Source of the DNA: Escherichia phage vB_EcoP_YF01
Sequence record: OQ025076.1
DNA: 64,000 nucleotides
Reading direction: 5' to 3' (one strand)
Part shown: positions 56,683 to 58,792 of the stretch, piece after piece
Numbering within the stretch: the stretch's first letter is position 1
Layout: every line of letters starts with the position of its first letter
Position numbers and translations under genes: made by a program
Notes under the pieces: generated by a model
What the model saw: the letters and a program-made list of their open reading frames with translations, nothing else
The model's database searches: none
What the model was told of the DNA's origin: nothing

Positions 56683-58713
56683 TTAACCTCTATTCAATGA
56701 ACATTTAGGAGAATTACAATAAACTTGATTCATAGAACCAAGCGTACAACTTTCAGCATCGCGCCACGGAATCTGCTTAAAACACTCTGAGCAGTAGCCG
56801 AGGGTTGACCACATGGCTTTGGTGAAGTCAGTGCTTCGGTTTCCGTCGAAGCTGACAACAGTTTTGCGGAGAGCTGTTCGTGATTCAGGAAACACACCTG
56901 CTTTCTCAGCAGGTTCCTCCTTTTTTGGCTTAGTTGAGATTGCAAAAATACTGTTGCTACGTTTCTCAACATAAGCATCAACAACATCCTCCAGAGTGAT
57001 GCCTGTCTGTTTCGCTGAGGAAGGTAATACAGTCATACGACCGATCATATCTTCAGTTACACGTAAAGCAAATTCAGGACGACGGGCGTTTGTTGTATCT
57101 GTTGCTTTAATCCAGACATAACCATCTTTGATCGTAGCATTAGATACCTTCTTCTTTACTTCTACAGCGCAGACTTTACAGATATCTTCACCACGAAGAC
57201 GACTGAGTTCCTCATCAAACTCGTTCTCTGTTTTAACTTCACCGCAGATTTCACAAACACCAATAGGAGTCTCCTCCTCTTCTTCATCTTTAGGTTTAGT
57301 CAAACCTTCCAGACATTCAGGGTGCCAGTAGCACTGATATGCGAAGACTGCTTTAGGTGCATCCTTCCAATCAATGTGTTTGTCACAACCACCGCAATCA
57401 CCATGAGAGTGTGCTTCCCAGAATTTACGAGTGATAGTAACGCCATTCTTATTGACGAAACTATCATTCATGTCAAAAGGGATATCATCATCAAAGTCAG
57501 CAGTAGTAGACTCAGGCTCCTTTTTCTCCAGAGATGGGTCAACAAAACGACCTGCTGTGATCACTAAACGAACCATAGCATTAACTTCGGAGATGCAGGA
57601 TACTGTCCCACGGTAAACAATTTTAGGGTCTTTCAGGGCATCCTGATAAGCCTTAATGTCTACGTTATGAACATCACCTTCGATATACTCTTGAGATTTC
57701 TCATCGTAGATATAACCAATCATCTTACCACGAGAAGGAACAGCACCAGCTGTTGCATAAGGAACAAACTCATGTGGTGTGATTTCCACAGTCATATCGC
57801 GGCGAATGTCAATGTTTCGATCGCTTGCGATTTTGTTTTGACTTACCACTGCGTTTCTTCGACGAACGTCTGCCGCTGTCACTCCCGGCTTCGTGTCGTA
57901 AGGATTGCTTGTACTGCTTTTTGAGGAACTTTGATAATTGCTTTGGCTGTAGTTGTTCGAGTAGTAATTGCCCCAACGATTGATTACCGTAAAAACCGGA
58001 AGCTCGTGGGCGACCTCTTCAACTAGAGTCATACTGTTGTTTGACATGTTAAAGATATACTCTGTACCAACTTTACATTCAAAGTGCTCATCAATTCGGT
58101 TTTTGTGAGACTTAGAACGCTTCAGAATCCACATCAACATGTCTTCTTCAGAAGCACCAAACCAATCTCTGTTACAACGTGCGAGATGGAAAGGACGCTC
58201 TTCGTTGCGGATGATATGAAGGCGGTTATCAGAAGCATCATGCCAGATTAAGGTGAAAGCACCATCCAGCTTTTGAATAGTCTCTGCTGCACCAATAGTG
58301 TTAATAGAGTGGCAGATATTCTCACTATCTACCTCGAAGTTTTTACTGTCAGGTAACAGGTCTTGGTCCATCAAGGTTCCGTTATGAACCAGAGTGATGT
58401 TACCATGTTGGAAAGGATGGGCGTTCTTGGCGTTAACTGCACCTTTCGTTGCATGACGGCTGTGACCAACAATCCATGAAGGCGCTACAGTGTAAGCTGT
58501 TTCACCAGTGGTGTGCTTCTTGTACTCATCTTGTAGGATGAATGCGAAAGAAGGAAGAGCTTCTTTATAGGTGAAGACTTCCTTAGTGCTCTTACGCTGA
58601 CCAAAGATACCAGAGGAATGTTGTCCTCGGAACACTCCAGCATAAAAGAGTTGGTTGAATACGTCTAAATCAGTGCTTGACAGATTACCGCCAGCTAATA
58701 CGATGCCACAAAT
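56683..58713 (-). CDS. Class II (Ntn) glutamine amidotransferase-like protein with C-terminal multi-zinc-ribbon extension; probable AUU start
   Basis: N-terminus reads (I)CGIVLAGG...FRGQHSSGIFG with GHSRHATKG, NAHPF and VHNGTL blocks; the Cys codon (58708-58710) is upstream of the ORF-track GTG and preceded only by ATT and a stop; C-terminal half has several CxxC pairs. Confidence 0.7.
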   Translation of the reverse strand: MCGIVLAGGNLSSTDLDVFNQLFYAGVFRGQHSSGIFGQRKSTKEVFTYKEALPSFAFILQDEYKKHTTGETAYTVAPSWIVGHSRHATKGAVNAKNAHPFQHGNITLVHNGTLMDQDLLPDSKNFEVDSENICHSINTIGAAETIQKLDGAFTLIWHDASDNRLHIIRNEERPFHLARCNRDWFGASEEDMLMWILKRSKSHKNRIDEHFECKVGTEYIFNMSNNSMTLVEEVAHELPVFTVINRWGNYYSNNYSQSNYQSSSKSSTSNPYDTKPGVTAADVRRRNAVVSQNKIASDRNIDIRRDMTVEITPHEFVPYATAGAVPSRGKMIGYIYDEKSQEYIEGDVHNVDIKAYQDALKDPKIVYRGTVSCISEVNAMVRLVITAGRFVDPSLEKKEPESTTADFDDDIPFDMNDSFVNKNGVTITRKFWEAHSHGDCGGCDKHIDWKDAPKAVFAYQCYWHPECLEGLTKPKDEEEEETPIGVCEICGEVKTENEFDEELSRLRGEDICKVCAVEVKKKVSNATIKDGYVWIKATDTTNARRPEFALRVTEDMIGRMTVLPSSAKQTGITLEDVVDAYVEKRSNSIFAISTKPKKEEPAEKAGVFPESRTALRKTVVSFDGNRSTDFTKAMWSTLGYCSECFKQIPWRDAESCTLGSMNQVYCNSPKCSLNRG

Positions 58714-58792
58714 TTTCTAATCCACCTGAAGGGTAAACCCTTTCATCTAATTAACCTTTAAATTGTGCCCCTTTGTCAGAGGCACCCATTGA

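Follow-up and report, generated by a model that had tools for sequence, protein, structure and literature searches.

Which codon starts the glutamine amidotransferase (GATase) gene of Escherichia phage vB_EcoP_YF01? We analyzed a stretch of 64,000 nucleotides from this phage (sequence record OQ025076.1; "the window" denotes this whole stretch), in which the gene lies on the minus strand in a region ~98% identical to the Kuravirus phages phiEco32, NJ01, SGF2 and SU10 (Gordonclarkvirinae; E. coli podophages); the phage is itself a phiEco32-like Kuravirus. The open reading frame (ORF) caller starts the gene at a GTG codon and gives a protein of 650 amino acids (56683..58635). The original prediction, made from the sequence alone, held that the frame stays open upstream of this GTG as stop-AAA-ATT-TGT-GGC-ATC-GTA, and that an active enzyme must start at the ATT. 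Re-reading of the minus strand gives exactly this frame: ...CTTCAGGTGGAT TAG AAA ATT TGT GGC ATC GTA TTA GCT GGC GGT.... The ATT (58713-58711), TGT (58710-58708) and TAG (58719-58717) codons are all in frame with the GTG (58635-58633), and 25 codons separate the GTG from the ATT. Between the TAG and the Cys codon there is no in-frame ATG, GTG or TTG, just AAA and ATT. Further upstream, the minus strand reads ...TTAATTAG, and then ATG AAA GGG TTT ACC CTT CAG GTG GAT TAG. The original prediction had missed this in-frame ATG (58746-58744), which opens a nine-codon ORF running up to the same TAG.

The AUU codon before the catalytic cysteine

The N-terminal ~200 amino acids form a class II (N-terminal nucleophile, Ntn) GATase domain, with Pfam GATase_6 (55.1 bits, cut-off 27) and GATase_7 (27.4 bits, cut-off 25) both matching above cut-off. 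A PDB search with the single sequence gave no match, and matches needed a profile. An 11-member family profile places the Cys on Cys1 of the E. coli enzymes GlmS (1xff) and PurF (1ecb) and of mature B. subtilis PurF (1ao0), in agreement with the earlier assignment of this Cys as the Ntn nucleophile. Residues R28 G29, H83 R85 A87 T88, N110 G111 and D128 S129 are invariant in our family alignment (A1), and the R-G, H-x-R-x-A-T, N-G and D-S motifs are all intact in the window protein. These data support the view that the gene encodes a class II (Ntn) glutamine amidotransferase of the phiEco32-type amidoligase/ATP-grasp cluster. The enzyme resembles GlmS, PurF, AsnB and GltB in its N-terminal Cys nucleophile, R-G, N-G oxyanion hole and D-S, and in its need for a free Cys1 alpha-amine. 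In contrast to these enzymes, it has a Cys-rich C-terminal part of ~450 amino acids, without a Pfam match, and its gene sits in a cluster of amidoligase, ATP-grasp and gamma-glutamyl-cyclotransferase genes. Unlike B. subtilis PurF, it has no propeptide. In the C-terminal part (56683-57900, minus strand), the paired-Cys motifs CGGCDKH...CYWHPEC, CEICGE...CKVCA and CSECFKQ...CNSPKC suggest zinc ribbons.

A GTG-started product would be without the nucleophile, the first 25 residues and the first strand of the fold. We read 13 distinct Kuravirus sequences directly (isolates, IMG/VR and metagenomes), which fall into two clades with saturated synonymous sites (dS >1 between clades) and ~83% amino-acid identity in the GATase domain. 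The ATT is invariant in all 13, and a further comparison with the phage collection showed this region to be collinear in ~96 Kuravirus records. From clade to clade, codons 1-25 show 11-14 synonymous and 5-6 non-synonymous differences, with a ratio of non-synonymous to synonymous rates (dN/dS) of 0.03-0.07, similar to that of the following 175 codons (0.04-0.11). Codons 1-25 are under purifying selection and are therefore translated. ATG-TGT-GG with an upstream Shine-Dalgarno (SD) sequence is found in every non-Kuravirus relative read at 50-66% identity (J3S, Privateer, GAP52, SE131, PKM.Hi.22.6, LAh_9 and three IMG/VR contigs). Since no in-frame canonical start is present and Cys1 is needed, AUU is the sole codon able to give a Cys1 protein. 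The earlier claim that an active enzyme requires AUU initiation is well supported, as far as sequence comparison can tell, by the lack of an in-frame canonical start, the selection on codons 1-25 and the ATG-TGT of the relatives. The same evidence supports AUU 58713-58711 as the probable start, in an arrangement that is fixed in the genus Kuravirus.

At this AUU, the initiator tRNA would place formylmethionine (fMet), and removal of that fMet would expose the catalytic Cys1. The AGGTGGA sequence 7 nt upstream would direct initiation, and ribosomes terminating at the TAG of the nine-codon ORF, 3 nt before the AUU, may assist it. The original prediction had correctly pointed to this SD, and its spacing of 8 nt was approximately right (7 nt by our measurement). 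The N-terminal tryptic peptide of the 676-amino-acid, Cys-first model is predicted to be CGIVLAGGNLSSTDLDVFNQLFYAGVFR. Taken as a whole, the explanation that combines an AUU start, Met removal, SD-directed initiation and an origin as the scar of a homing endonuclease gene (HEG), discussed below, is in our judgment likely. The protein of phage SU10 has been detected by mass spectrometry with nine peptides and is listed at 63.8 kDa, the size of the truncated annotated model (PMC4281155). We assume that the SU10 spectra were searched against the truncated annotation and are hence silent on the N-terminus.

Several points weigh against AUU initiation as described here. The AUUUGUG sequence also holds a UUG (+1 frame) and a GUG (+2 frame) at a similar spacing from the SD. 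Given these overlapping codons and the intrinsic weakness of AUU, most initiations at this site could be unproductive; overlapping UUG and GUG codons may compete for initiating ribosomes (compare PMC9841429). In the minimum-free-energy fold of the leader, GGUUUACC pairs with GGUGGAUU and the SD within the upstream ORF is covered; this fold is no more stable than those of shuffled sequences (z -1.0 to -1.3), and the leader block has zero variation, so that no covariation signal is possible. A literature search for N-terminal, toeprint or ribosome-profiling data on any family member found none.

The AUU might be reached mainly by termination-reinitiation, in which ribosomes on the nine-codon ORF melt the SD hairpin, stop at the TAG and restart 3 nt further on. 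This would refine the AUU start rather than replace it, and the 52-nt leader block (Table 1) would be a translational coupling device and not a scar. The position of the upstream stop 3 nt before the AUU, the fold over the SD and the invariance of the 52-nt block are all consistent with such a route, as is the fact that at most ATT/ATC loci of the family an upstream ORF (an endonuclease or a conserved gene) ends within ~35 nt of the start codon. However, the SD-covering fold is not significant against shuffles, the upstream ORF's own SD is weak (AAAGG), and no ORF ends within 45 nt in several ATT lineages, including L068, L071, L132, L144, L145 and L159. We regard reinitiation as the main route as possible but doubtful.

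Direct AUU initiation also has to be weighed against a start at ATG 58746, with read-through of the TAG and autocatalytic removal of a 12-residue propeptide (MKGFTLQVD-X-KI), as in B. subtilis PurF. Class II amidotransferases processed in this manner are known: B. subtilis PurF is made with a propeptide, and the mature enzyme begins at Cys (1ao0). Both the ATG and the TAG share the frame of the gene and are conserved in Kuravirus and in Aeromonas phage BUCT695. However, the TAG two codons before the Cys interrupts the frame that would link a canonical start and a propeptide to this Cys, and read-through would need efficient amber suppression in wild E. coli hosts. Related ATT/ATC lineages have no in-frame upstream start; L099 has TAT in place of TAG and still no start. 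Between Kuravirus and BUCT695 (MKGLTLQAD*), both differences in the upstream ORF are non-synonymous (F to L and V to A), with no sign of selection on the peptide. Read-through is thus very improbable.

A start at GTG 58635 or at a later ATG, leaving a protein without Cys1 and a GATase domain that is a non-catalytic relic, is hardly credible either. AUU is intrinsically a far weaker start codon than GTG, the mechanical ORF call opens at the GTG, and several GenBank records annotate the GTG or a downstream ATG. Nevertheless, the codons before the GTG show the purifying selection seen across the rest of the domain, all catalytic motifs are intact, homologues begin M-C, and the GTG has no properly spaced SD, as GGA directly abuts it. 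An assembly or sequencing error for ATG, which the original prediction had named as a possible refutation, is ruled out: although one base separates ATT from ATG, no evidence supporting an error was found, and the identical ATT occurs in independent isolates and metagenomes (the 13 sequences), and BUCT695 and at least 15 further lineages of the family have ATT too.

We also considered a frameshift from another frame and rejected it. The +1 and +2 frames give ORFs of only 8 and 4 codons (TTG TGG...TAA and GTG GCA TCG TAT TAG), and the preceding gene stops at 58793, which leaves no longer ORF upstream in another frame.

Start codons and homing endonucleases in the family

A homology-based collection of amidotransferase loci (IMG/VR, metagenomes and GenBank phages) was clustered by GATase domain at 60% identity. 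In 39 of the 48 clusters, ATG stands before the Cys; ATT does so in 7, ATC in 2 and TTG in 2, two clusters being mixed; ATT or ATC precedes the catalytic Cys in ~19% of the family lineages. All but one of the ATT/ATC loci are without any in-frame canonical start upstream. ATT is found in BUCT695 and at least 15 other lineages, and GTG before the Cys in a single example (L119). An independent, equal-ascertainment scan with the pattern AGGAG-N6-10-[ATT or ATG]-TGTGGNATHGT yielded 11 ATT and 51 ATG family members (9 versus 39 clusters).

In E. coli, infC and pcnB are the only confirmed AUU starts, and AUU initiates at ~1-2% of AUG (10.1101/063800), so the original prediction was right to call such starts rare. 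As in infC and pcnB, the phage AUU is the sole possible start, is preceded by an SD, is conserved within its lineage and is replaced by AUG in orthologues elsewhere. The AUU of infC is an autoregulatory sensor of its own product, initiation factor 3 (IF3), whereas nothing links the amidotransferase to IF3. We found no evidence to apply here the earlier remark that such starts are often regulatory, in the sense of IF3 autoregulation as in infC. The phage AUU seems to have been brought by mobile DNA, and it recurs in about one fifth of the lineages of one protein family. A family with such a proportion of AUU/AUC starts is a natural test bed for the tolerance of weak start codons.

The link to mobile DNA is clearest in one metagenomic population (L034-L039), where the flanks are 98-99% identical and insertions of 355 nt and ~490 nt sit precisely between ATG and TGT. 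L037, which has ATG and no HEG, reads ...AAAAGGAGTTTGAATA ATG TGT GGA ATT TGG. L039 reads ...AAAAGGAGTTTGAATA ATG TGG ATG GAT...[355 nt]...TGA GCAGGAGGATTAGAAA ATT TGT GGA ATC TGG, and the two are 98.8% identical downstream of the 355-nt insertion. The L039 insert encodes an endonuclease with HNH_3 and AP2 domains, which uses the amidotransferase's own SD and ATG, and gives the amidotransferase a new SD and an ATT. The insert of L035 at this site is an HNH gene (phrog_374) unrelated to that of L039. Its 19-nt right end is identical, and the TAG stop of this HNH gene lies 3 nt before the ATT. The junctions are of the forms ...GAATAATGTGTGGAATTTGG... (ATG type) and ...AGAAAATTTGTGGAATCTGG... (ATT type). 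Both endonuclease-carrying alleles have an extra synonymous ATT-to-ATC change at Ile3, which fits the idea of target immunity but proves nothing.

Similar neighbours are found at other ATT loci. In L089, an ORF of an endonuclease family starts with ATG TGT AAA and ends 1 nt before the ATT. An ORF with HNH_3 and helix-turn-helix (HTH) domains adjoins the ATT in L108, and HTH-type remnants adjoin it in L120 (a weak match) and L158 (read from the sequence). HEGs or their remnants abut ATT alleles only. An HEG lies directly upstream in 3 of 9 ATT/ATC clusters and in none of 39 ATG clusters (Fisher p 0.005, computed by hand on this homology-based sample).

In roughly half of the ATG alleles, the start codon overlaps the stop of the conserved gene before it (gap 2-8 nt). 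No ATT allele shows this overlap; the ATT alleles carry either an endonuclease gene or 16-82 nt of additional sequence. The overlap of stop and ATG implies translational coupling, which an endonuclease insertion would break. In the ATG-type members with such an overlap, about half of those among loci L065-L110 and L162-L239, the upstream gene is an amidoligase, ATP-grasp or C26-like gene.

The free-standing HEGs of T-even phages (seg and mob; intronless homing, PMC2988022) are alike in being HNH-type genes between conserved genes, in being variably present in near-identical genomes and in having to fit the expression of their neighbours. Insertion between the start codon and codon 2, with capture of the ATG and SD and provision of a replacement SD and a non-AUG start, is seen here; that review describes no start-codon replacement. 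T4 free-standing endonucleases are reported to cut hundreds of bp or more from their insertion site (PMC2988022).

A second case may lie at the other end of the window gene. An intact HNH endonuclease gene (HNH_3, phrog_99, 168 amino acids; 56173..56679, minus strand) stands between the amidotransferase and a gp82-like gene. Nearly all Kuraviruses are without it, most Kuravirus records of the collection matching the flanks only, and among these records Bas89 alone has a homologue (81% identity). Phages without this gene read AGAGGTTAAGT ATG GAA ATT CGT, while the window reads AGAGGTTAAGT TTG ATA GAA...[endonuclease gene]...AGAGGTGAACC TTG GAA ATT CGT, with the TTG of the next gene at 56186-56184. 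In both carriers (the window and Bas89), the downstream gene thus begins with TTG GAA ATT, against ATG GAA ATT in non-carriers. This parallels the amidotransferase case, in that the insertion falls on the start codon and the neighbouring gene acquires a new SD and a start other than ATG, but it is weaker because in-frame ATGs come five codons later.

In the proposed mechanism, free-standing HEGs would insert exactly between the ATG and TGT of the family's conserved 5' end, take over the original ATG and hand the amidotransferase a new SD and ATT. That several unrelated HEG types repeatedly invade the start codon in this manner, capture the ATG and ribosome-binding site (RBS), and leave a portable SD and AUU scar kept by target immunity (ATGTGTGG...) is a tentative generalization. 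If it were true, the hundred-fold excess of a 'forbidden' start codon in a single gene family would be due to mobile-element immunity and not to translational regulation. If the link to HEGs holds, mobile elements can rewrite the translation signals of their neighbours and leave diagnostic scars after their loss.

Origin of the Kuravirus leader

The Kuravirus sequence CAGGTGGATTAGAAAATT matches the right end of the L035/L039 insertions (CAGGAGGATTAGAAAATT) at 17 of 18 bases, in the same register relative to the Cys codon. This 18-nt module is the sole match in the window at up to 2 mismatches, with 0.03 expected by chance. At the SD position, the related modules have AGGAGGA (L035, L039 and L040) or AGGCGGA (BUCT695). 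L040 has AGGAGGATTAGAAA-ATT and L099 has AGGAGGATTATAAA-ATC, both without an endonuclease gene. Outside Kuravirus and the phage amidotransferase locus L040, the 18-mer GGATTAGAAAATTTGTGG has stray matches only (1 more in IMG/VR and 6 in 596 Gb of genomes); the scan of genome contigs also gave one Kuravirus contaminant in a metagenome-assembled genome.

BUCT695 (L123, NC_070977; Grimontviridae) combines a Kuravirus-type leader with another type of amidotransferase. Its GATase is closest to that of the ATG-type phage GAP52 (62%) and is ~55% identical to that of Kuravirus. However, its leader reads TTTAAATGTAATATTAG ATG AAA GGG TTA ACC CTT CAG GCG GAT TAG AAA ATT TGT GGC ATC, and the leader, upstream ORF and ATT are 88.6% identical to those of Kuravirus over 78 nt. 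Between the amidoligase-like gene and the amidotransferase, at 1301-1585, we found an unannotated, putative decayed HNH gene, which is followed by the Kuravirus-type leader. This remnant was identified by eye, not by family search, from DCWLWTGCINSDGYP, an N-terminal fragment MDKVLKKITHQGDCWLWTGCINSDGYPKE* and a helix-turn-helix fragment, and its ATG overlaps the stop of the upstream gene. The presence of a GATase closest to the ATG type with a Kuravirus leader beside a putative decayed HNH gene indicates that the leader and ATT moved between phage families alongside an endonuclease gene. In the BUCT695 record, the annotated amidotransferase begins further downstream than the ATT (locus 1584).

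By these comparisons, the AUU and RBS of Kuravirus are on balance better explained as a horizontally spread HEG module than as a point mutation within Kuravirus, and the endonuclease gene would since have been lost, leaving the AUU and RBS behind. The ATT might have been kept because restoring ATGTGTGG would rebuild the endonuclease target site; this is speculative, and we consider it rather unlikely. Most 20-nt bins in the flanks of the 52-nt block have 25-70% variable sites, and the invariance of the block itself could come from strong constraint or from recent homogenization.

The origin of the leader as a scar has several points against it. No endonuclease gene lies between the amidoligase and the GATase in the window or in the ~96 Kuravirus records, just the nine-codon ORF, and a search of IMG/VR for a Kuravirus-type leader with an intact endonuclease gene matched five Kuravirus contigs only. 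The shared module is just 17-19 nt long, traces of an endonuclease are missing from about half of the ATT lineages, and the BUCT695 remnant lies ~45 nt upstream of the module instead of abutting it. Four different endonuclease types, all beside ATT, fit target immunity only loosely. Finally, the 52-nt block could be invariant because of some regulatory role that has nothing to do with homing.

Annotation and other features of the locus

The AUU start is not new as an annotation, since the phiEco32 reference already has it. A start at this ATT is annotated in phiEco32 (NC_010324, phi32_83, complement 54493..56523), LAMP, Bas89 and Bas90. phi32_83 (YP_001671828) and its Kuravirus orthologues are the same gene, ~98% identical, with an identical leader and a coding sequence (CDS) from the same ATT; phiEco32 differs in being without the HNH gene that the window phage has at 56173-56679. 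The GTG is the annotated start in SGF2, O18-011 and SR02, an ATG 88 codons further downstream in Paul, NJ01 and pEC-N1203, and the ATG at codon 11 in HC-25922. Thus, the catalytic N-terminus is cut off in 7 of 11 sampled Kuravirus records. Prodigal and PHANOTATE, both automatic gene callers, are not known to consider ATT, which would account for these truncations. Structural or functional work on the truncated models would use a dead protein, and the same truncation is likely in other ATT/ATC lineages of the family. Records without the catalytic N-terminus (GTG or later ATG) are MN045231, NC_018835, OQ540978, MN148435, LC553735, OQ870566, OQ555404 and PQ867841; OQ540978 has two spurious small ORFs across the missing N-terminal region.

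The family-wide pattern of ATT/ATC starts and its tie to homing endonucleases are new here. Our literature search, which did not reach the phiEco32 genome paper, found no paper on this ATT codon and nothing relevant on ATT starts in phages or on start-codon capture by endonucleases.

The features of the locus are collected in Table 1. Neither the near-palindrome AAGGGTTTACCCTT nor the 18-nt module is found elsewhere in the window.

Table 1. Features of the amidotransferase gene and its leader (window coordinates)
Feature	Position	Strand	Remarks
Glutamine amidotransferase CDS from ATT	56683..58713	-	2031 nt, 676 codons + stop; same length as phiEco32 phi32_83
GTG of mechanical ORF call and some GenBank records	58633..58635	-	Rejected as biological start
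Codons 1-25 CGIVLAGGNLSSTDLDVFNQLFYAG, omitted by GTG start	58636..58710	-	dN/dS 0.03-0.07 between Kuravirus clades
Catalytic Cys1 codon TGT	58708..58710	-	Profile alignment to GlmS/PurF Cys1; invariant column in alignment A1
52-nt block TAAAGG...AAAATTTG	58709..58760	-	Zero variable sites among 13 distinct Kuravirus sequences
Inferred AUU initiation codon (ATT)	58711..58713	-	Sits where relatives have ATG; invariant in 13 Kuravirus sequences
18-nt RBS + ATT module CAGGTGGATTAGAAAATT	58711..58728	-	17/18 match to right end of L035/L039 insertions
In-frame TAG, two codons before Cys	58717..58719	-	Also stop of nine-codon upstream ORF
Nine-codon upstream ORF MKGFTLQVD*	58717..58746	-	GATase frame; ATG 58746-58744; includes near-palindrome AAGGGTTTACCCTT
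Shine-Dalgarno-like AGGTGGA	58721..58727	-	7-nt spacer TTAGAAA, then ATT
Hairpin, 8 bp stem + 5-nt loop	58765..58785	-	3' of amidoligase stop codon (58793-58795)

A search of the leader against Rfam gave one sub-threshold chance match (16.4 bits, gathering score 70), and a scan of the leader for promoters and terminators gave nothing above shuffle expectation. The phiEco32 gp36 promoter consensus tAATGTAtA (PMC8948821) was not seen in the leader by eye. Grimontviridae and related contigs (L059, L061-L064 and L123) share a conserved TTTAAATGTAAAT-like motif ~20-30 nt before the amidotransferase start, and its Kuravirus counterpart (window 58750-58765) is TTTAAAGGTTAAT. This motif might be a phage promoter element; it matches neither the phiEco32 tAATGTAtA nor the 7-11 GTAAtg-16-aCTA consensus.

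The stem of the hairpin downstream of the amidoligase gene differs in clade 2 of Kuravirus (GGGCGC.../...GGGCGC), where pairing is still possible as judged by eye. Analogous GC-rich hairpins precede the amidotransferase gene in Grimontviridae relatives. The Kuravirus hairpin could be a terminator, a processing site or a stabilizer.

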